Notes under the pieces: model-generated
Told to the model about the DNA's origin: nothing
What the model saw: only the letters and a program-made list of their open reading frames with translations
The model's database searches: none
Sequence record: MT478991.1
DNA from: Escherichia phage vB_EcoM_011D4
Reading direction: 5' to 3' (one strand)
Length of the DNA stretch: 64,000 nt
Translations under genes and position numbers: made by a program
Shown here: piece after piece, positions 1,712 through 63,248 of the stretch
Layout of the letters: the number at the start of each line of letters is the position of its first letter
How positions within the stretch are numbered: the first letter of the stretch is position 1

Positions 1712-1719
1712 TATAAATA
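1712..1719 (+). promoter_or_regulatory. T4-type late promoter (TATAAATA) for gp36
   Basis: Exact TATAAATA about 34 nt upstream of the gp36 ATG at 1753; the T4 late promoter consensus is TATAAATA. Confidence 0.5.
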
Positions 1720-1752: not shown

Positions 1753-3243
1753 ATGGCAGATTTGAAATATGGATCTACTGTAGGTGGATCTCCCATTTGG
1801 ACGCAAGGAAACTTGACGATCCAGCCAGCGGGGGATCAGCTTTTCTACAAAGGTCATAAAATCTATACCGCTTTTGATAGACCTTCGGCTACCGATTTTG
1901 ATGCTGTTAGTGCATCCGAAGGTGGCACATTTCAAAAGCAAGTTCATTTCGAGGAAGGTTTAAGCGTAGGTAGCGCATCGGCTGGAGAAACCAAAAAGAA
2001 TGGTATCTTTAAAGGCCAGAGTGATGCCGCTAATTTTGACGGCGTAAGCTGGGGTTTGCATTCATGGAAGTCAATCGGCTTTGTTAATGCCCGTGATGGC
2101 GTTATTATGGCGTATATTGACACCACAACGGGCGAATTTAAGTCTAAAGGGACTATCGAAGGGACAACCATTAAAGACACAGGTCAACGCGTCTATAGCC
2201 CTGTTAATAAACCAACGAATAATGATTTAGATTTGGTGTCTCGTCGCGGTGATACTCTCACAGGAACATATAATTTAAACACTGTCACTGTTAAACTATC
2301 GGTTGATTCGAAATTAATTGCAAGGGAACGTGATTTAATTAATTTTGATGCGACTAAGATCTATTATGGTAACGTTCTTGATACGTTGGTATTCCGAAGT
2401 AAAGATGAGCCTACCATTTTTGTTAATGGCAGAGAAGGTCGTTTTTATCACACCAACAATAAACCAACTAAAGCCGATGTTGGGCTAGGCAATGTCACCA
2501 ATGATGCACAGGTTAAACGTGCTGGTGATATTATGGAAGGTAACTTGCAAGCGCCTAGAATGTTGGCGACAAACGATCCTGCTGGTCCTAATGAATTGGT
2601 TCGTTTGAGCTACTTTGAGAGAAAATCAATGGTAGCAAATCCAACCATCATTGGAAACGTTGATTGGAACACTCTTATTAATCGCGGTATCTATCGTGTG
2701 GAAAATGCTGGGTCGGGTACTAATAAACCGTCTGATAGTTATTATAACGGCGTTTTGATGGTATATCGCCCAGAAGATGCGGTCGGTACTCGTCGAATTG
2801 TTCAGGTGTATTATCCTGAATCTATTGATCATCCGATGTGCTGGCGTTCGTGTTCTAATGAATCATGGACTGCATGGAACTATGTAGATCACCGTAAATT
2901 AGCCGATATTCGCTATGTTAACGTAACTGGCGATACCATGACAGGACCGTTAACTGTTCCGGCTGCAAACGGTGTTAGAACAGCTAAAACTAACTATAAC
3001 GGGGATAACTGTTATGCGGCGTTAAGCGGTGCTGATGGTACTGCTATGATTCACCGTATTAGTGATATTAAAGGGACCGAAAAGCTGGGGATCACCCACG
3101 ACTCAAAGGTCGTGTTTTTCCGTTCTAGAAACAATACTCAAACCGTGGACCGCTATCAGCTTTATCATGAAGGCAATAAACCTACTCCGGCTGATGTTGG
3201 CGCAGTTCCACTTAATGCGGTGATTGATTTTGGTACTTTCTAA
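1753..3243 (+). CDS. 36: Long tail fibre distal subunit, proximal part (gp36)
   Basis: N-terminus MADLKYGSTVGGSPIWTQGN matches the conserved gp36 N-terminus as recalled; repeated NKPT tail-fibre motifs; RBS GAGG upstream. Confidence 0.8.
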   Translation: MADLKYGSTVGGSPIWTQGNLTIQPAGDQLFYKGHKIYTAFDRPSATDFDAVSASEGGTFQKQVHFEEGLSVGSASAGETKKNGIFKGQSDAANFDGVSWGLHSWKSIGFVNARDGVIMAYIDTTTGEFKSKGTIEGTTIKDTGQRVYSPVNKPTNNDLDLVSRRGDTLTGTYNLNTVTVKLSVDSKLIARERDLINFDATKIYYGNVLDTLVFRSKDEPTIFVNGREGRFYHTNNKPTKADVGLGNVTNDAQVKRAGDIMEGNLQAPRMLATNDPAGPNELVRLSYFERKSMVANPTIIGNVDWNTLINRGIYRVENAGSGTNKPSDSYYNGVLMVYRPEDAVGTRRIVQVYYPESIDHPMCWRSCSNESWTAWNYVDHRKLADIRYVNVTGDTMTGPLTVPAANGVRTAKTNYNGDNCYAALSGADGTAMIHRISDIKGTEKLGITHDSKVVFFRSRNNTQTVDRYQLYHEGNKPTPADVGAVPLNAVIDFGTF

Positions 3244-3313: not shown

Positions 3314-6232
3314 ATGGCAGATTTAAGCAGAATCCAATTTAAACGTACTAGCACTAAAGGCCGTCGACCTGATGCTGGTACGATGAATCCGGGGGAATTG
3401 GCAATCAACCTTGCGGATCAATATCTTCTTACTAAAAATGATTCCGGTGCTATTATCAATTTAAGTTGTCCTCCGGTTTATGACCGCGATGTTACAATGG
3501 CAGGTAAGGTTAAAGGTAATAATTATATCTTAAGTAAAACCGCTAACTATTTGGAAGACCAGACAGCGCGAGATCTTAACTACTTTGGTGCTTTCCGTAC
3601 CAATGGTCTTGATGGTCTTCTCGAACTCACGCTAAACGTTCCTCATTCTTCTGGTGTTCAGCATGGTCGAGGATTTACTTTCCAGTATGGACACACTGGA
3701 TCGCGTGTAGAAACTTATGGCTATAATAAAGAAGGTCAAAAAGCATTTAGCTATAAAATGTATCATGAAGGTGATAAACCAACTCCAGGAGAATTGAACG
3801 TTTATAGCAAACAAGAAGTTGACCGTATGTTTGTTAAGAACGTTAAACTTTCTACAGGTTCTGGTGATATCGTTGAAGGCTATTTTAAATTAGCAACTGC
3901 AATGATTCCACAAAACGGTCTTAGCGTATTTTTCCGTATTCATGGTGGTAACGGATATAACGTTACTGCATACGACCAAGTTGATATTGTAGAAATTGTT
4001 ATTCGCAGTGGAAATGGTCGCCCTAAAGGTGTTAACGTTATTGCATATCGCCGAAATACAAACAAATCATTTGATGTTTTGGCTGTTAATACTTCTGGTG
4101 ATAACTATGATATCTATGTGAAATATCAGCGTTACACTGATAACGTTATTGTTGAATTTGGTAAAAGTGTTGGTGTTAATCTGGTAGTTCATGACGTTCC
4201 AGATTTTGTTGCTGAACGTCCTGCTGGCGATAATGTTATTGGCGGTCGTGCTGTAACTCTTTTTAACACAGAAAATAAGCGTGGTGTGTTGAGTTTTGAC
4301 GATAACACACAAAACAGCTATGATATTGTTCATATGAGTAATGATAAAGGTACTGGTCGGAAATATATTCGTAAATTCCGTAGTAACTATAATGAAATGA
4401 TCTGGCACGAGACGGTTCAAGGTAATACATATCGATTGGCAACCGGAACGACTGATGCATCGGAAGTTTTTAGAATTACTAGCCGCACCATGTTTACTGG
4501 TAAAGGTGTATTTGATGCCGGACAAAACGTTCTTAGATTAGAGCGTCCTAGTAACCAATCAAACTATATTGAATGGCAAGATCGCCGAAATGGTGCTGAT
4601 GTTCGTCAAGGTTGGATCGGTTTTGGTGGTGCTGAAACAAATGACTTCCAATGGTATAGCGATCACGCAAAAAACTCATTCATGTTGGATGCTAACGGTC
4701 AATGCTCTATTATTACTGGTGCGACCAAAATTGTATATACCAACGGACAATATTATTCCGCTAACTCTGATGCATATCGTATGATCTATGGCAATTATGG
4801 TGCATTCTGGCGTAATGACGGGACTAAAGTTTATCTTCTGTCTACGGCTGAAAATGACCGTTTTGGTGGCTGGAACGGAAACCGACCATTCATTTACGAT
4901 CTTACTTCCGGTAACGTTCAATTAGGCGGTGATGGTAACGAAGATGCATTAACGTTAGAATGTGCTTCTCGTGCCGCTCGCTTTAGTAATGACGTTTACA
5001 TTAAGAAAGGGCTTTTGACTTTCGACGCTGGGCGCGCTGGATCTCGCGATTATATTCGATTTAATCATTGGGGTGATAGTAATAATGCCCGTGATAACGT
5101 TTTGTACATAGAAGATAGTCAAGGCCGACATTTTAGCACAGAACGTGCGATGGGTACTGGTGCTCTTAAAGCATACTTCTTAGGCGATCTTGAAGTCGGT
5201 GGTAAGTTTACTTGGGGTAAAAATACAGCTACATCTAGCTTTAATATTCGTGCATGGGGTAATGATTCCCGTAAACAAGTATTAGAATGCGCGGATGAAA
5301 GTGGTTGGCATTGGTATACCCAACGTCCAGGCGGTCCGGGAACAAATGAGATTATATTCAATGTTAACGGGAAAGTTCAATCTCAGGGTTTTGAGACTTC
5401 CGGTAATATTAAGATAACTGGACCAGACATTGAGTTTCGTCGCACTGGCAATAAGCACATCTGGTTTAGAGATCCTGACGGCTTAGAATTGGGTTTGATT
5501 TATTGTGACGACAACGGCGTTATTCGTTTCCGTGGTCAAAAACAAACTCAAGATTGGATATTTGGCAATAAGACGATCCAATTAGGAACTAGTGCTACTG
5601 TTAGTGGATCTGGTAACGGTTTGATTCGCGGACAAGTTCAAGGTGGTGCTTGGACACAATGGAGAGATCGTGCTGCTGGCTTATTGGTTGATTGTCAGAA
5701 TACCGAAAACTCTGCACATAACGTGTGGAAAGCGACACATTGGGGCAAATTCCACATTGCAGCTATGGGTATTCACGTTTCAGGTGGAAATATAGCAAAC
5801 GCATTGGCGCGTCTACATGTTAATGATGCAACTTTTGACCATAGTGCGAGCGGTGACTTCCAGGCAAGCCGTAATGGTAGCTTTAACGATGTTTATATTC
5901 GTTCTGATGCTCGCCTTAAAATCAATAAGGAAGAGTATAAGGAGAATGCCACCGATAAAGTTAATCGCTTGACTGTGTACACCTACGATAAGGTTAAGTC
6001 TTTGACGGACCGCACTGTTATCGCTCATGAAGTTGGTATTATTGCTCAGGATCTTGAAAAAGAATTGCCGGAAGCAGTAACAACTTCTAAGATCGGCGAT
6101 CCTGATAAGCCAGAAGAGATCTTAACAATTTCTAACTCTGCTGTCAACGCTCTTTTAATTAAGGCGTTTCAGGAAATGAGCGAAGAACTTAAAGCCGTTA
6201 AAGCTGAACTAGCGGAACTTAAAAAGAATTAA
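3314..6232 (+). CDS. 37: Long tail fibre distal subunit gp37 with C-terminal intramolecular chaperone-like domain
   Basis: N-terminus MADLSRIQFKRTSTKGRRPDAGTMNPGELAINL resembles the gp37 N-terminus; 972 aa; C-terminus has SDARLKINKEEY and a coiled-coil tail typical of self-cleaving tail-fibre chaperone domains. Confidence 0.85.
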   Translation: MADLSRIQFKRTSTKGRRPDAGTMNPGELAINLADQYLLTKNDSGAIINLSCPPVYDRDVTMAGKVKGNNYILSKTANYLEDQTARDLNYFGAFRTNGLDGLLELTLNVPHSSGVQHGRGFTFQYGHTGSRVETYGYNKEGQKAFSYKMYHEGDKPTPGELNVYSKQEVDRMFVKNVKLSTGSGDIVEGYFKLATAMIPQNGLSVFFRIHGGNGYNVTAYDQVDIVEIVIRSGNGRPKGVNVIAYRRNTNKSFDVLAVNTSGDNYDIYVKYQRYTDNVIVEFGKSVGVNLVVHDVPDFVAERPAGDNVIGGRAVTLFNTENKRGVLSFDDNTQNSYDIVHMSNDKGTGRKYIRKFRSNYNEMIWHETVQGNTYRLATGTTDASEVFRITSRTMFTGKGVFDAGQNVLRLERPSNQSNYIEWQDRRNGADVRQGWIGFGGAETNDFQWYSDHAKNSFMLDANGQCSIITGATKIVYTNGQYYSANSDAYRMIYGNYGAFWRNDGTKVYLLSTAENDRFGGWNGNRPFIYDLTSGNVQLGGDGNEDALTLECASRAARFSNDVYIKKGLLTFDAGRAGSRDYIRFNHWGDSNNARDNVLYIEDSQGRHFSTERAMGTGALKAYFLGDLEVGGKFTWGKNTATSSFNIRAWGNDSRKQVLECADESGWHWYTQRPGGPGTNEIIFNVNGKVQSQGFETSGNIKITGPDIEFRRTGNKHIWFRDPDGLELGLIYCDDNGVIRFRGQKQTQDWIFGNKTIQLGTSATVSGSGNGLIRGQVQGGAWTQWRDRAAGLLVDCQNTENSAHNVWKATHWGKFHIAAMGIHVSGGNIANALARLHVNDATFDHSASGDFQASRNGSFNDVYIRSDARLKINKEEYKENATDKVNRLTVYTYDKVKSLTDRTVIAHEVGIIAQDLEKELPEAVTTSKIGDPDKPEEILTISNSAVNALLIKAFQEMSEELKAVKAELAELKKN

Positions 6233-6272: not shown

Positions 6273-6512
6273 ATGGTCTATAATATCGTCATTGGTGCTT
6301 TGTCTAATTTCGGAATGAAATTATTGTCAAAGTTAATTAGTGAAAAGATGCTCACTAAAATTTTCTTCTATTGCGCTCGTCGTCTTGCGGCTTATACCAA
6401 TACGCCAATTGATGATCGTTTTGTGGAAGAACTTTATAAGGAGTTTAATAAAGATCAGTCAGAAGATAGCAACGAGCAAAATAAAAATAGTGATAGTCAA
6501 CTACCTAAATAA
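6273..6512 (+). CDS. Hypothetical protein (79 aa) in the position T4 gp38 would occupy
   Basis: ORF between gp37 and holin t with an acidic Ser/Asn-rich C-terminus; no glycine-rich or gp38-like features. Confidence 0.35.
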   Translation: MVYNIVIGALSNFGMKLLSKLISEKMLTKIFFYCARRLAAYTNTPIDDRFVEELYKEFNKDQSEDSNEQNKNSDSQLPK

Positions 6513-6545: not shown

Positions 6546-7202
6546 ATGCAAGTTTCTGAAAAAGGGAAAGACTTTGCTATCTCAAATGTCCTGCGCGCTA
6601 TTTTCACAACTAAAAGCACGGAGTTGCTCGTACTTCGTGTTTTTGCTGCCGTCGTGTTGTCCATATTAGCATTTGTCGTTTATAGTAAAAACGAGTTATT
6701 TGCGCTTTATAAAGAGACTCGTTATGAGACTTATGCTCACGTTCTCCAGGTAGAGAAAGACCGCAATTTTGATAATGCAGCACAGGAGCAGTTACAGATA
6801 GTTCATGTGTCGGCTGATGCCGATTTTTCTGCTGTTTTTAGTTTTCGTCCGAAAAACCTAAACTATTTTGTTGATTTGGTGGCATATGAAGGAAAGCTAC
6901 CGCATACAATCGATGAAAAAAATTTAGGCGGATTCCCTATCAATAAAACGAGTGAAGAATATCGTAGACATCTTTTAGGTAAATCCTATTTTACCGATAA
7001 AGATTTCCAGTATATTCCATCAAGAGAAAAGAAATTAGAGAGTATCGATATAGGGGTTATGTATTCTTGTCCTATATTCAATCTCGATAATGTCTATTCT
7101 GGTAGTATCTCCATTGCATGGAAGAATAAACCGGATATTGACATTGAGAATTTAGATACTCTTTGCAATCAATCTGCCAGAATCCTCGGAAGGATTAGAT
7201 AA
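6546..7202 (+). CDS. t: Holin (T4 t-like)
   Basis: 218 aa, same length as T4 holin T; N-terminal TM segment (VVLSILAFVVY); conserved block LQIVHVSADADFSAVFSFRPKNLNYFVDLVAYEGKLP and C-terminal ARILGR. Confidence 0.85.
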   Translation: MQVSEKGKDFAISNVLRAIFTTKSTELLVLRVFAAVVLSILAFVVYSKNELFALYKETRYETYAHVLQVEKDRNFDNAAQEQLQIVHVSADADFSAVFSFRPKNLNYFVDLVAYEGKLPHTIDEKNLGGFPINKTSEEYRRHLLGKSYFTDKDFQYIPSREKKLESIDIGVMYSCPIFNLDNVYSGSISIAWKNKPDIDIENLDTLCNQSARILGRIR

Positions 7203-18275: not shown

Positions 18276-18471
18276 TTTGATTCTCCTTTGTTACTAGATA
18301 ACGAATTTGGTCTTGCATTGCGATCAGTTCCCAGCGTGCTACTTTCATCATGGAAACTGACTCTTTGAACATAATATTAGCTTTTTCCTTCTCCCCTGTC
18401 AAGTAGATTTCTGCAATTTTTTCACAAAATTTTTGAGTTTCTTCATTCTTAAACGGTTTCATATAAGTCAA
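18268..18471 (-). CDS. Hypothetical protein (67 aa)
   Basis: ORF downstream of the early promoter at 18493. Confidence 0.4.
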   Translation of the reverse strand: MTYMKPFKNEETQKFCEKIAEIYLTGEKEKANIMFKESVSMMKVARWELIAMQDQIRYLVTKENQNA

Positions 18472-24724: not shown

Positions 24725-24753
24725 AATTGATTCTCCTTAGTTGGTATGTGTGT

Positions 24754-45350: not shown

Positions 45351-45609
45351 AAATCGCCCTCAGTTCTTTATAGCCTCCAATGTGCTCGTTGTCAATGAAT
45401 ATCTGGGGGTATACAAATCGGAGGCTCTTTGAGTTCAGCCTCCCCGCCAGTTCTTCAATCATATCACGGTCGGGAATAATGTCAACCCCGACCTGCTTGA
45501 ATACTGGTTTAAGTGTATACGGAATACCCAGATCATCCAGTAGCTTCATTGCACCAATACAACCATAACAATGATAAGCCTCTTTCGGTATGCCGTATAT
45601 CTCGATCAT
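45340..45609 (-). CDS. Glutaredoxin-like protein (NrdH/glutaredoxin family)
   Basis: 89 aa; N-terminal CxxC (HCYGC), cis-Pro motif VYPQIF and GGY typical of glutaredoxin/thioredoxin fold; near nrdG/nrdD. Confidence 0.55.
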   Translation of the reverse strand: MIEIYGIPKEAYHCYGCIGAMKLLDDLGIPYTLKPVFKQVGVDIIPDRDMIEELAGRLNSKSLRFVYPQIFIDNEHIGGYKELRAIYDY

Positions 45610-46082
45610 TTCTCAGCCTTTAATCTTTCTAGTTCTTCTTCCAGTTCCTTGATCCGTTGGTCACGTTCAAAGTCACGCTGCAACTTAGTGGCGAATACTC
45701 GTTTAAACTGATTGTAATCATCGATTTTAAACACTTCTTCTTCGCCATAGCGACGCACAGAAACTTCGTAGTTATTGAAGAATTGTTGCATCATTGCTTC
45801 GGATGATAGTTCTGCTGATACTACTTTAAAATATTGATCTTCTGTAGGCGAAAACCAATTACAAGCATAAAGATAAACCTTTTCATTGTCTGGACACTGG
45901 TAAGCCTTACCATCGATTTCAATCACAGAAACATATTCAGGCATAGTAGATGAATCAATAGCTAAGACTTTAAACTGACGGTCCCCGATAAACTCGGAGA
46001 TCACACGATTCGCATCACTGGTTGCAAAGGCTTTACGCGCTTGTTCGCTTTTCCACTGATAGGTCATACCAACAACAAACAT
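45606..46082 (-). CDS. Hypothetical protein; member of multi-copy module family (1 module)
   Basis: N-terminal module VGMTYQWKSEQARKAF...FKVL...VSVIEIDGKAY shared with the next three genes and with 52293..54381. Confidence 0.5.
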   Translation of the reverse strand: MFVVGMTYQWKSEQARKAFATSDANRVISEFIGDRQFKVLAIDSSTMPEYVSVIEIDGKAYQCPDNEKVYLYACNWFSPTEDQYFKVVSAELSSEAMMQQFFNNYEVSVRRYGEEEVFKIDDYNQFKRVFATKLQRDFERDQRIKELEEELERLKAEK

Positions 46083-46083
46083 A

Positions 46084-46908
46084 TTACCAACCTCGCTCTT
46101 TACCGATCAAAAATTCAACCTCACGACGTTTAATGTCTTCTTGAAGGTCTTTAATCTTCTGGCGATCTTGCATGATTTCATCCATCTTGTCAAGTGCTGC
46201 AATAAAATCATCGAAACGTTCAAAGGTTTTACCTTCATTTGCTTCGCCAAATTTAACCATAGTCAGACCGTAACGACTACTAAACAGACGTTTCAACTGC
46301 CCAACGATCTTAGAATCAGTAGTGACGACTTCCAATTCTTCTACTTCTTGAAAGAATTTTCTATCAGAATCAATAAACCAGCTAGTTCCTTTATGGTCTT
46401 TATCTTCGGTTGCACTCATTAGAGTATGGTCTTTACCATCAATTTCAATTACATCAATTTGCCCACATGGACTAACCTTTTTAACAGTAAAAGGTCTATA
46501 ATTTATTGCTCGTGCAATAACATAATTAAGGTTAGATACGTTTTCAGCATAATGACAGAAGTCGGTCATAGCATTCGCATCTTTCCAAGTATAAGTTTTA
46601 CCAACTTCCCATTTCTGGGGAACTTCTTCAACTTCACGAAAGAATTTTCTGTCAGTAGGACTAAAGAAAAATGATGCCGTCCACAATTCATTTTCTGTAA
46701 CAGAGTCTACCGTATGCTCAACCCCATCGAGTTCTATTACATCAATCCAATCGCCATCTTCGACCTTGTTGATGGTAAAAGGCTTATCACCAATAGATTT
46801 TCTGATATCGTCATTAAGTGGAGAAAGGCAACCACCACCACAATTAACAAAATCTGTTTTAGCTTTTTCATCTTTCCAGGTGTAAGTTTTACCAATTTCC
46901 CATTTCAT
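46084..46908 (-). CDS. Hypothetical protein; module family (2 tandem modules)
   Basis: MKWEIGKTYTWKDEKAKTDF and QKWEVGKTYTWKDANAMTDF start two internal repeats, each followed by ...IDVIE(L/I)DG...DRKFF(R/Q)EVEE. Confidence 0.5.
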   Translation of the reverse strand: MKWEIGKTYTWKDEKAKTDFVNCGGGCLSPLNDDIRKSIGDKPFTINKVEDGDWIDVIELDGVEHTVDSVTENELWTASFFFSPTDRKFFREVEEVPQKWEVGKTYTWKDANAMTDFCHYAENVSNLNYVIARAINYRPFTVKKVSPCGQIDVIEIDGKDHTLMSATEDKDHKGTSWFIDSDRKFFQEVEELEVVTTDSKIVGQLKRLFSSRYGLTMVKFGEANEGKTFERFDDFIAALDKMDEIMQDRQKIKDLQEDIKRREVEFLIGKERGW

Positions 46909-59389: not shown

Positions 59390-59633
59390 TTACATTGTCT
59401 CCATAGATCTTTCCAGCAATATCAATTTCACCAGCGCGAACATCTAGGATAAGATGCGGTAGGTGTATGCAGTTTTCCCACCCTACGCGCTTCATTTCTT
59501 CTACGGTAACGTAAGCCCACCCGTTCGCTGTAATAAAGTCTACTTCAACCTTGAGAGGAAAGCAAGACTTTTCTATGTCTTCGAATCCGACAATATGTTT
59601 TGTTGTTGAATATGGAATATATCCGGTGATCAT
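59379..59633 (-). CDS. Hypothetical protein (84 aa)
   Basis: Compact - strand ORF. Confidence 0.4.
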   Translation of the reverse strand: MITGYIPYSTTKHIVGFEDIEKSCFPLKVEVDFITANGWAYVTVEEMKRVGWENCIHLPHLILDVRAGEIDIAGKIYGDNVNEN

Positions 59634-60064
59634 TTTGTGATCTCCTTATACTCAACACACCATAAGCGGGTAGCCCATGATAAACGCTCATAACGCTGGC
59701 AGAAATCGGACCATAGATATTGTGTACCGTCTTGCATAGTTGAAATATGCGTTTTCTCTCCTACTTTCACGAAAGAAGTATTCGATTTTGTGATCTCGAC
59801 AGGAGTATATCCGAAAGCTGGTTCCAAGTCAACATCTGAACTAAATGCCAATTTAACAGAATTTGTTTTTCTGACCGCTGTCCGGTTTCCTTCTGGGTAT
59901 AGCACAGCAGGTTTAGCGCCTAAGCGGATAAACTCAGTATTTTTAATGAACAGAATATCATGATAACCGTCATATTCCGACACTTCCATAGTAACAGGAA
60001 AATCGATATGTGTTAAACCTGGTAGATCTCGCATGTCATGAAATGTAGCCATCAACTTTTTCAT
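59630..60064 (-). CDS. Hypothetical protein (144 aa)
   Basis: GAGGAA RBS; C-terminal half (PAFGYTPVEITKSNTSFVKVGEKTHISTM...YLWSDFC) is duplicated in the next gene. Confidence 0.45.
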   Translation of the reverse strand: MKKLMATFHDMRDLPGLTHIDFPVTMEVSEYDGYHDILFIKNTEFIRLGAKPAVLYPEGNRTAVRKTNSVKLAFSSDVDLEPAFGYTPVEITKSNTSFVKVGEKTHISTMQDGTQYLWSDFCQRYERLSWATRLWCVEYKEITK

Positions 60065-60114
60065 TTTGTATTCCTCACTCTTCTGTAATTACTTCATATT
60101 CAATTTTCCATACA

Positions 60115-60294
60115 TCAATCGCCCAGCTTAAAAAGCTCATACGATTTACAGAAAGATGACCAAATATACTGTTTTCCGTGCATCGTTGTTATGTGTGTAC
60201 GCTCGCCAACCTCAACGAAAGACATATTTGACTTTGTGATAACTATAGGAATGCGACCGAAAGCTGGCGGTATTACTGATTCGTTGGTCTTCAT
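60115..60294 (-). CDS. Hypothetical protein (59 aa); partial duplicate of 59630..60064
   Basis: PAFGRIPIVITKSNMSFVEVGERTHITTMHGKQYIWSSFC matches the neighbour's C-terminus; identical 16-nt RBS context ACAGAAGAGTGAGGAA. Confidence 0.35.
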   Translation of the reverse strand: MKTNESVIPPAFGRIPIVITKSNMSFVEVGERTHITTMHGKQYIWSSFCKSYELFKLGD

Positions 60295-60304
60295 TCTATG
60301 TTCC

Positions 60305-60502
60305 TCACTCTTCTGTTTCATTTCTTTTATATGGTACTATAACAGGATTAATACAGCAAGCACCAATTACGTTATGAGCACCACAATTTAAGCATTTATA
60401 ATCATGGAACTTATTAAGGAATCGCCCGAACTCATAACCGACTAGCGCCGCATGTACTTGAGTCTCGATCTCATCCATATCAGCCAATGTTTTAACCCTC
60501 AT
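60305..60502 (-). CDS. Small Cys-rich protein (about 65 aa)
   Basis: ATG at 60502 with TGAGGA RBS; contains CLNCG...GACC, a likely Zn-binding cluster. Confidence 0.4.
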   Translation of the reverse strand: MRVKTLADMDEIETQVHAALVGYEFGRFLNKFHDYKCLNCGAHNVIGACCINPVIVPYKRNETEE

Positions 60503-60803: not shown

Positions 60804-60832
60804 CTTTGATTCTCCTTAGTTGTTATGTGTGC

Positions 60833-60860
60833 ATTATAGCACTATGATTTTCATTGTCAA
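60833..60860 (-). promoter_or_regulatory. Sigma70-like early promoter (TTGACA-N16-TATAAT)
   Basis: - strand TTGACAatgaaaatcatagtgcTATAATgcacacat. Confidence 0.6.
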
Positions 60861-60863
60861 CAC

Positions 60864-60899
60864 CCAAAAAACAAAAAAGGCTATCCCGAAGGATAGCCC
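60864..60899 (-). terminator. Rho-independent terminator downstream of the glycine-rich gene
   Basis: - strand GGCTATCC-TTCG-GGATAGCC followed by TTTTTTGTTTTTT, 7 nt after the stop at 60906. Confidence 0.65.
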
Positions 60900-60905
60900 A
60901 TAAAA

Positions 60906-61688
60906 TTACACGCGAGCACCGTAGATCGTGCCTACTTTATCCCAGCGAGGGGCATTGCCAGTAACAGCCTTACCAGCCGCACCGCCATTATATTCCGATC
61001 CCTGTCCACGGATATTACATTTACCACCAGCACCGCCAGCATCACCACCGTTACCGCCATTATATACACCGTTGACAGACCCTTTACCTGGCGCGGAAAT
61101 AGTACCAGCAGTAGCACCCCGTTCCATATTAGCAGACCCACCAGCAGCACCAAATGGACGACCGCCACCACCACCAAAGGTTAATTTCATTTGTGGCATA
61201 GGAGAATAATACCCACCACCGCCACCACCACCACCGCCACCACAAATAGCGCCGTTATTTGTGATGCGTAAGCGTGTGCCTATACCGTTGTTAATTGCAT
61301 TACCACCAGCACCACCAGCGGAGTTATTGCCACCATTACCACCACGCCCCCAAACATGAACACCGGAGTTAATGATCAATGTTACATATTCATTTGTTAA
61401 CGAGCTAGGGAAGTCAAGACAAGGAACGCCAGTAGATTGGGAAACAATATTACCAGTGATAGTAATTACTACCGGAGTAGATCCCTGTGCTTTCATCCAG
61501 TTAATAAGCGTATCTTTATTGTAACTATTACTAGCGCCAATGCTATAATGAATCTCTTTAGAGCGTCCGACCATTGCCGACATATACGCCGGACGACCTA
61601 AGCGAACAGCTTGCATTGCGGCGCTCATCCACCGTTGACCAGTCTCGGACACAGCAGATGATCCTACCCATCCAGAAGATATTGCCAT
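60906..61688 (-). CDS. 38: Glycine-rich protein resembling T2-type gp38 tail-fibre adhesin
   Basis: 260 aa; N-terminus GWVGSSAVSETGQRWMS resembles the gp38 attachment domain as recalled; C-terminal half has repeated glycine-rich motifs (GRGGNGG, a run of ten Gly, FGGGGGRPFG, GGNGGDAGGAGG); TGAGGA RBS. Confidence 0.5.
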   Translation of the reverse strand: MAISSGWVGSSAVSETGQRWMSAAMQAVRLGRPAYMSAMVGRSKEIHYSIGASNSYNKDTLINWMKAQGSTPVVITITGNIVSQSTGVPCLDFPSSLTNEYVTLIINSGVHVWGRGGNGGNNSAGGAGGNAINNGIGTRLRITNNGAICGGGGGGGGGGYYSPMPQMKLTFGGGGGRPFGAAGGSANMERGATAGTISAPGKGSVNGVYNGGNGGDAGGAGGKCNIRGQGSEYNGGAAGKAVTGNAPRWDKVGTIYGARV

Positions 61689-61699
61689 AAAGTTTCCTC

Positions 61700-61724
61700 A
61701 CAAGAAAAGCCCCATTTAAGGGGC
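61700..61724 (-). terminator. Hairpin plus T-run upstream of the glycine-rich gene
   Basis: - strand GCCCC-TTAAAT-GGGGC followed by TTTTCTT. Confidence 0.45.
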
Positions 61725-61742
61725 ATTGATTAATAATATTAC

Positions 61743-61964
61743 TTAGATGACCTCTGCTTCTCCATTCAGGAAGAAAGACCAAGTTTTGTTTGGGTAACGA
61801 AGCGCCCATGATTCAGCAGTTTTAACACCAGCTTCGAACAATTGACGGCTGGTCACTTTAGCCATACCATCTTCGATGGCAACGTTTTCAATAATCATCG
61901 GGTACTTAGCTCCACGCATGAAACCGAAACCAGCGGAAGATTTGATAATTTTAACAGTTGCCAT
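61743..61964 (-). CDS. Hypothetical protein; small paralog family B
   Basis: MATVKIIKSSAGFGFMRGAKYPMIIEN...EAGVK aligns with the 58916/59192 pair; CTAGGAGAATCAAAA leader. Confidence 0.45.
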   Translation of the reverse strand: MATVKIIKSSAGFGFMRGAKYPMIIENVAIEDGMAKVTSRQLFEAGVKTAESWALRYPNKTWSFFLNGEAEVI

Positions 61965-62005
61965 TTTTGATTCTCCTAGAAAGTGTATCTCGTTTCGATG
62001 GGTGT

Positions 62006-62034
62006 ATTATGCAATGACACCGGATCGCTGTCAA
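62006..62034 (-). promoter_or_regulatory. Sigma70-like early promoter (TTGACA-N17-CATAAT)
   Basis: - strand TTGACAgcgatccggtgtcattgCATAATacacccatc; -10/+1 region nearly identical to the promoter at 11416. Confidence 0.55.
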
Positions 62035-62052
62035 CACTTTCTAAGAAAAAAT

Positions 62053-62337
62053 TTAAATTAATCGAATATAGCCCAGAATTTCAGCGCCTTTAGCCAGTCC
62101 TAAAACTTCCCATTCAAGGTCGCCGTAGTCATAATTTGCAACCATCAACTGACCATTTTTCATGCAGCAATCATGAGAGAAAATTTGCCCCGCATAAACT
62201 ACGATAGTAATAAACTTTCCTGATTCTGGCGGTGTGGAAGACAAAGCGACCATATGACCATTCAGCTTAGTCACCAGTGATGGAACAATAAAATTCGGGC
62301 TTATCTGAATACAGTTAAATTCGTTTGTGTCTTTCAT
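62053..62337 (-). CDS. Hypothetical protein (94 aa)
   Basis: Compact - strand ORF. Confidence 0.4.
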   Translation of the reverse strand: MKDTNEFNCIQISPNFIVPSLVTKLNGHMVALSSTPPESGKFITIVVYAGQIFSHDCCMKNGQLMVANYDYGDLEWEVLGLAKGAEILGYIRLI

Positions 62338-62684
62338 GCCAGACCTCGCAAAACACTAATAGCATAATCATGCTGGTTATTCATAATATCAATTGCATTG
62401 TGATAACGAGCTAAACCATCAAGGATAAATTCTTGTTTATCCTGTTTCAGTTTGGTATCACGCGCAGCCATAAGAGCATCAAGAACAGGTCCAAAGTGAT
62501 TATCTAATTCATCTTCGGTTGCAATGTTTCCTATTGCCTCGTCGATCCGTGATTCTAATGCTTGCTTTTCGTTGATCACTTGCTGGGTATATTCCAACAC
62601 ATCAAGAATATCGCGGGTAACGTCGCCATGATAAGGTATTCCCGCGTGAATATGATCAATTAATCGCTGAATATCAATGTTCAA
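62334..62684 (-). CDS. Hypothetical protein (116 aa)
   Basis: Compact - strand ORF; stop overlaps the next start. Confidence 0.4.
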   Translation of the reverse strand: MNIDIQRLIDHIHAGIPYHGDVTRDILDVLEYTQQVINEKQALESRIDEAIGNIATEDELDNHFGPVLDALMAARDTKLKQDKQEFILDGLARYHNAIDIMNNQHDYAISVLRGLA

Positions 62685-63218: not shown

Positions 63219-63248
63219 TTTTGATTCTCCTTTGTTGTCGATGTGTGC

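Follow-up and report, generated by a model that had tools for sequence, protein, structure and literature searches.

Gene 38 of the RB49-like phage vB_EcoM_011D4 encodes a T2/S16-type long-tail-fibre adhesin at a displaced site

The gene at positions 60906..61688 of the 64,000-nucleotide stretch of Escherichia phage vB_EcoM_011D4 analysed here (record MT478991.1, referred to below as the window) encodes a T2/S16-type gp38 adhesin of the long tail fibre, as identified by sequence, profile and predicted fold. The gene, g38, is separated from the gene of the distal fibre subunit gp37 by 54.7 kb and lies on the opposite strand (gp37, plus; g38, minus), which agrees with the approximately 55 kb given by an earlier sequence-only reading of this DNA. 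Such displacement is a documented exception in RB49-like phages; the relocated host-range cassette proposed by the sequence-only reading is correct, yet it is already the published interpretation for the genus Krischvirus. The g38 product is very probably a receptor-recognising adhesin that caps the self-cleaved gp37 and is supplied from a displaced unit between dam and rI. Within the genus, the segment that carries g38 is a presence/absence allele, and what interest remains is modest and lies partly in how the genus, with a single exception among the records examined, maintains one adhesin gene per genome while two loci alternate. The locus comprises the following elements, given in the direction of transcription.

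62006..62034, minus strand: sigma70-type early promoter TTGACA-17-CATAAT, preceding the 73-aa ORF (consensus scan)
61743..61964, minus strand: 73-aa ORF (phrog_7345, unknown function), first cistron of the g38-containing unit
61702..61724, minus strand: hairpin upstream of g38, weak and terminator-like, separating it from the 73-aa ORF; GCCCC-TTAAAT-GGGGC, then TTTTCTT
61694..61699, minus strand: Shine-Dalgarno sequence GAGGAA, 5 nt from the g38 ATG, read from the sequence
60906..61688, minus strand: g38, 260-aa T2/S16-type long-tail-fibre tip adhesin, starting with ATG
60878..60899, minus strand: intrinsic terminator directly 3' of the g38 stop, with a 9-bp stem and a T-run
60833..60860, minus strand: perfect sigma70 promoter TTGACA-16-TATAAT with TG (12/12), serving the ORF after g38
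60805..60821, minus strand: conserved leader/RBS AACTAAGGAGAATCAAA, where alignability of genomes with and without the segment resumes

The ORF is intact, and its product has the N-terminus MAISSGWVGSSAVSETGQRWMS and the glycine-rich C-terminal half that had been described for it. Two Pfam families, each with a gathering cut-off of 25 bits, account for almost its entire length: Gp38_N (PF21721; 65.6 bits, E=3.9e-18) covers residues 1-40 and GP38 (PF05268; 244.2 bits, E=1.7e-72) covers residues 45-260. The product further matches phrog_2056, 'tail fiber protein; host specificity' (E=3.6e-101), S16 gp38 from the structure of the gp37-gp38 tip complex (PDB entry 6F45_D, E=7.8e-50 with residues 1-258 aligned) and the gp38 receptor-binding domain of PDB entry 9v85 (E 1.2e-30). 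An AlphaFold2 model based on 48 homologues has a mean pLDDT of 91.8 and a pTM of 0.83, and Foldseek superposes it on 6F45_D with an E value of 1.4e-21, TM-scores of 0.81/0.85 and 43% identity in the structural alignment. Significant fold matches in the PDB are confined to two gp38 entries (three chains), the best unrelated entry having an E value of >3. Profile search against gp38 adhesins and structure prediction, both suggested earlier as checks on the T2-type architecture, were positive.

The protein is laid out as a Gp38_N fibre-docking domain (residues 1-40) and a region of glycine-rich motifs and hypervariable segments (residues ~114-260). In the 48-sequence alignment, glycine accounts for 29 of the 47 invariant columns. 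These glycines cluster within the glycine-rich motifs, and the intervening segments vary and have no defined consensus. Residues 114-260 are modelled with pLDDT values of 85-97 and are mostly assigned neither helix nor strand by DSSP, as would be expected for polyglycine-II (PGII) helices. A GGT/GGC trinucleotide repeat (61212..61241, minus strand) underlies a poly-glycine run of 10 residues. The corresponding run comprises nine residues in GEC-3S, E26 and RB49, which suggests slippage, and the TB34 record annotates a ACCGCCGCC repeat at this run.

A mechanism can be proposed by analogy with work on S16, T2 and RB49. The gp37 subunits would trimerise and their C-terminal S74 chaperone domain would cleave itself off, and the N-terminal domain of one gp38 would then dock on the newly formed fibre tip. 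The hypervariable loops, carried on a polyglycine-II sandwich of the glycine-rich motifs, would contact the outer-membrane receptor; in the relative RB49 the receptors are OmpA and certain O antigens. For RB49, location at the virion tip and choice of receptor by gp38 are supported by host-range mutants carrying gp38 E230K with or without Y231S (Efimov et al., PMC9569957) and by the assignment of OmpA as the receptor (PMC9569957; Lutz et al. 2025, PMC12032242), and by analogy the same would hold here. The E230-Y231 pair of RB49 is kept as E232-Y233 in the alignment. The receptor of the present phage may nevertheless differ from OmpA, because its hypervariable region departs from that of RB49; a statement on the receptor of GEC-3S, ELT4, FL37 or FL38 was not found in the literature examined. 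In most T-even-like phages, host range is determined mainly by gp38, which is also a target for the engineering of therapeutic phages.

The records of RB49, JSE and GEC-3S label the product 'distal long tail fiber assembly catalyst', and an early-type transcription unit would suit a folding factor that, like T4 gp38, acts as a chaperone of gp37 assembly and stays outside the virion. That gp38 is merely such a catalyst is very unlikely. The homology to the S16 adhesin, which was crystallised on the gp37 tip, extends over the full length and includes the receptor-binding PGII domain; hypervariable loops between conserved glycine motifs are a property of a receptor binder; the RB49 host-range mutations lie in gp38 (PMC9569957); and gp37 has an intramolecular chaperone of its own. 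The RB49 record itself describes gene 38 as 'similar to T2 and RB69 gp38 adhesin'.

The partner subunit and the canonical g37-g38-t slot are located at the other end of the window.

3314..6232, plus strand: gp37, distal long-tail-fibre subunit of 972 aa, the putative partner capped by gp38
5903..6232, plus strand: C-terminal intramolecular chaperone of gp37 (Peptidase_S74)
6273..6512, plus strand: 79-aa ORF ('Dc5' in RB49), adjoining gp37 and unrelated to gp38
6546..7202, plus strand: holin t (Phage_holin_T, 3.4e-60), end of the canonical slot

The chaperone-like C-terminus attributed to gp37 by the sequence-only reading is borne out by a Peptidase_S74 ('chaperone of endosialidase') domain at residues 864-923 (E 1.5e-11), which aligns with residues 87-196 of S16 gp37 (6F45_A, E 2e-4). 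Cleavage is predicted, by analogy, at S864/D865 in NDVYIRS/DARLK. The S16 system thus resembles the present one in full-length gp38 homology, in the predicted gp38 fold and in a gp37 with an S74 chaperone. It differs in its mature gp37 tip, for which sequence comparison detected no similarity upstream of the chaperone domain, and the docking geometry is for this reason assumed. Likeness of the gp37 tip to that of S16 was rejected as support for docking, the chaperone domain alone being aligned, and matches in a search with full-length gp37 were limited to gp34-like domains. The gene order in S16 also differs, g38 there presumably lying directly after g37.

Position directly downstream of g37 is a usual, non-defining trait of gp38 genes and is absent here. 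The usual slot lacks an adhesin, because gp37 is followed by the 79-aa ORF and then by holin t. The 79-aa ORF, which had been called unrelated to gp38, is without a Pfam match and is not gp38-like. It belongs to phrog_402 (E 5e-20), and homologues with 32-47% identity occur in several hundred phage records, among them Felixounavirus, Vibrio, Erwinia and Aeromonas phages. In a few of these records the matching region carries the annotation of a holin or a lysozyme-like gene, and Dc5 may be associated with lysis rather than with the fibre.

At the displaced site, g38 would follow the 73-aa ORF as second cistron in a small unit composed of an early promoter, the 73-aa ORF, a weak hairpin, g38 and a terminator-promoter cassette. 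The position between hairpins and the lack of a sigma70 promoter directly upstream of g38, both noted earlier from the sequence alone, were reproduced by a consensus scan, in which the nearest promoter-like site upstream is that at 62006..62034, ahead of the 73-aa ORF. The same scan places the upstream hairpin at 61724..61709, with a 5-bp G+C stem followed by a T-run. It is the weaker of the two flanking hairpins on folding (centroid -11.2 kcal/mol, z -1.9; downstream terminator, -15.3 kcal/mol, z -4.3). A small hairpin masking the Shine-Dalgarno sequence of g38 was discarded as a candidate, since it is present in the MFE structure and absent from the centroid.

The element after g38 is of the kind termed PeSL (Arbiol et al. 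2010; Comeau et al. 2014), which is located in hyperplastic regions and joins a stem-loop terminator to a near-consensus sigma70 early promoter immediately behind it. It consists of the terminator (60899..60878) and the 12/12 promoter (60860..60833), and it resembles the PeSLs of RB49 and phi1 in that a G+C stem-loop terminator, here directly behind g38, precedes a TTGACA-N16/17-TATAAT promoter of near-perfect sequence. The stem-loop upstream of g38 differs from a PeSL in lacking a promoter. Gene 38 is not mentioned as a PeSL example in Arbiol et al. 2010 or Comeau et al. 2014.

In the ~690 nt searched upstream of g38 (61689..62377, coding strand), neither an exact nor a one-mismatch copy of the T4-type late-promoter consensus TATAAATA is present. 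The exact consensus TATAAATA occurs once in the 64-kb window, against 5.6 occurrences expected, at 1712..1719 on the plus strand and ~35 nt ahead of a gp36-like ORF (1753..3243). On the strand of g38, the late promoters predicted for RB49 come closest with Pl:48756, which precedes rI, lies 2.6 kb upstream and would map just past the end of the window. These results count against the adhesin reading, in which a virion protein would have to be produced from the displaced site. Our guess is that g38 is transcribed from the early-type promoter at 62034 through the weak hairpin, possibly with late read-through in addition. The encoding of a virion protein in an early-oriented unit is itself notable.

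With no promoter directly upstream, no late-promoter consensus nearby and terminator-like hairpins on both flanks, the displaced g38 might be taken for a silent relic or spare cassette, the real adhesin being another protein; phage KFS-EC does have a different small ORF beside gp37. This reading is extremely improbable. The ORF is intact, a strong Shine-Dalgarno sequence precedes its ATG by 5 nt, the occupied site is kept in 43 records, and every record except one has a single gp38. Those empty-site genomes that were examined have g38 beside gp37 instead, the slot after gp37 in the window holds no other gp38-like ORF, and the host-range mutations of RB49 map to gp38.

The window belongs to Krischvirus, with a nucleotide identity of 96-99% to ELT4, E26 and PHB13, and the high-coverage matches of three window segments are all Krischvirus records (90-99% nucleotide identity). 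Over the 2.1-kb g38 locus, identity is 99.4% to ELT4, 98.1% to PHB13, 90.7% to RB49 and ~91% to Phi1 and JSE; E26 is 98.0% identical over 4.5 kb. The RB49 record AY343333 (2003) has gene 38 at 45367..46143, between dam and rI/tk, at the same site as here, and most Krischvirus phages keep g38 there, in the hyperplastic early region that separates dam from rI, and not next to gp37. The displaced gene was described by Trojet et al. 2011 (PMC3157838), through whom Desplats et al. 2002 is known as the original description, and by Lutz et al. 2025 (PMC12032242). A 2026 preprint on five Krischvirus phages places g38 'approximately 55 kb downstream of gp37' (bioRxiv 10.64898/2026.04.02.716166). Annotation pipelines that seek gp38 only beside gp37 miss the RB49-like copies, a point that has also been published.

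The whole segment of hairpin, g38 and terminator/promoter is present in 43 of the 69 records that match the locus (the filled site). In at least 13 Krischvirus records both flanks align and ~880 bp are absent (the empty site). These records include:

kvi, G2494, G5211, G37-3, G2248, FL20, MIZ4 and MIZ5
KMB43, LF73P4, Skers, UPWr_E1 and phiS

The 73-aa ORF is common to both groups. In kvi and G2494 its stop codon is directly followed by a TTGACA...TATAAT promoter and a 96-aa ORF; at up to 3 mismatches, this empty-site promoter is not a copy of any other element in the window. The filled and empty forms become alignable again at the leader AACTAAGGAGAATCAAA. The corresponding degenerate sequence, AAC[T/A]AAGGAGAATCAA[A/T], has four occurrences on the early strand of the window, compared with 0.02 expected.

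18276..18292, 24726..24742, 60805..60821 and 63220..63236, minus strand: leader/RBS AAC[T/A]AAGGAGAATCAA[A/T] (motif count)

At one of its occurrences, the leader falls on a junction of the g38 presence/absence polymorphism. Promoter-terminator cassettes have been proposed as recombination sites (Arbiol et al. 2010; Comeau et al. 2014), and recurrence of the leader at the g38 junction fits that proposal.

In the empty-site genomes examined, g38 lies between gp37 and Dc5. A 1-kb query across the end of gp37 finds gp37, Dc5 and t contiguous in 41 records; the alignments of the remaining 17 are interrupted at ~6220, about 10 nt short of the gp37 stop codon. In the slot of kvi, the module (kvi 3900..4887) shares 88-93% DNA identity with many Tequatrovirus genomes, including HP3, M1 and BW-1, from the chaperone domain of gp37 through the 5' half of g38. 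Judged from these sequences, a recent exchange of a fibre tip module between Krischvirus and Tequatrovirus is indicated. Because of this identity, the canonical arrangement looks like a secondary import within Krischvirus, and the empty-site form is more likely the derived state. A recent relocation private to this phage, creating a new mobile host-range cassette, might be read from the regulatory cassettes of a proposed shuffling type that bound the segment and from its absence in some members of the genus, but it has practically no chance of being correct, being refuted by conserved synteny (site, neighbours and junctions are alike in RB49, recorded in 2003, and in ~40 records at 90-99% identity) and opposed by the Tequatrovirus-like DNA of the empty-site slot module.

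A tblastn search with gp38 over the phage collection returned 538 places in 537 records, from which one gp38 copy per genome is the rule. The only record seen to mix the two configurations is KFS-EC (MH560358). Its gp37 is kvi/T2-like (82% identical to kvi), its slot holds an orphan 107-aa ORF (L010 4571..4894) with no Pfam family and no meaningful PHROG, and its g38, at the displaced site (L011 905..1681), is RB49-type, with 253 of 258 residues identical to RB49.

The gp38 of the present phage is a mosaic of RB49-type residues 1-120 and a Tequatrovirus-like hypervariable region. RB49 gene 38 (AAL15128) and its orthologues in GEC-3S, E26, ELT4, PHB13, Phi1 and JSE share with it the genus, the dam-rI locus, the neighbours, the hairpins and the junctions. 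The gp38 proteins of GEC-3S, E26 and ELT4 are 97.7-98.5% identical to it overall. RB49 gp38 is nearly identical in the N-terminal 120 residues (114/118), whereas overall identity is 84% (221/264 alignment columns), its hypervariable region belongs to another type (47/80 columns identical, two bins) and the poly-Gly run is one glycine shorter than here. In contrast, the Tequatrovirus gp38 proteins of Shigella phage A2, JoYop and slur13, which are 87.5-88.2% identical in amino-acid sequence over residues 6-260, match in 71-72 of 76 positions of the hypervariable region (77-92% identity in DNA there) and in only 25 of the first 40 alignment columns. Their genes occupy the canonical gp37-gp38-holin slot, and their gp37 tips are unrelated to gp37 here, the chaperone domain excepted.

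The slot gp38 of kvi combines RB49-like hypervariable segments with a T2-like N-terminal half. Shuffling of gp38 mediated by the motifs was described by Trojet et al. 2011 (PMC3157838), and it evidently operates whatever the location of the gene. The idea that gp37 tips and gp38 N-termini co-vary strictly was considered and rejected: in KFS-EC a kvi/T2-like gp37 occurs together with an RB49-type gp38, and A2 and JoYop have unrelated gp37 tips yet share gp38 residues 50-260. Tentatively, and with doubt prevailing, the unlinked g38 might be regarded as a free-standing plug-in adhesin, perhaps made earlier than gp37 and independently of it. If so, the segment would alternate within the genus with a Tequatrovirus-derived module of gp37 tip and g38 at the canonical slot, and the pairing in KFS-EC would let one docking domain serve very different fibre tips.

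Downstream of the g38 locus, two further ORFs of 144 aa (59630..60064, minus strand) and 68 aa (60115..60321, minus strand) have a common C-terminal domain, ...ITKSN.SFV.VGE.THI.TM...W..FC..YE, and belong to phrog_16117 and phrog_10407. In BLAST alignments, many relatives have an indel within the stretch 59630..60321.
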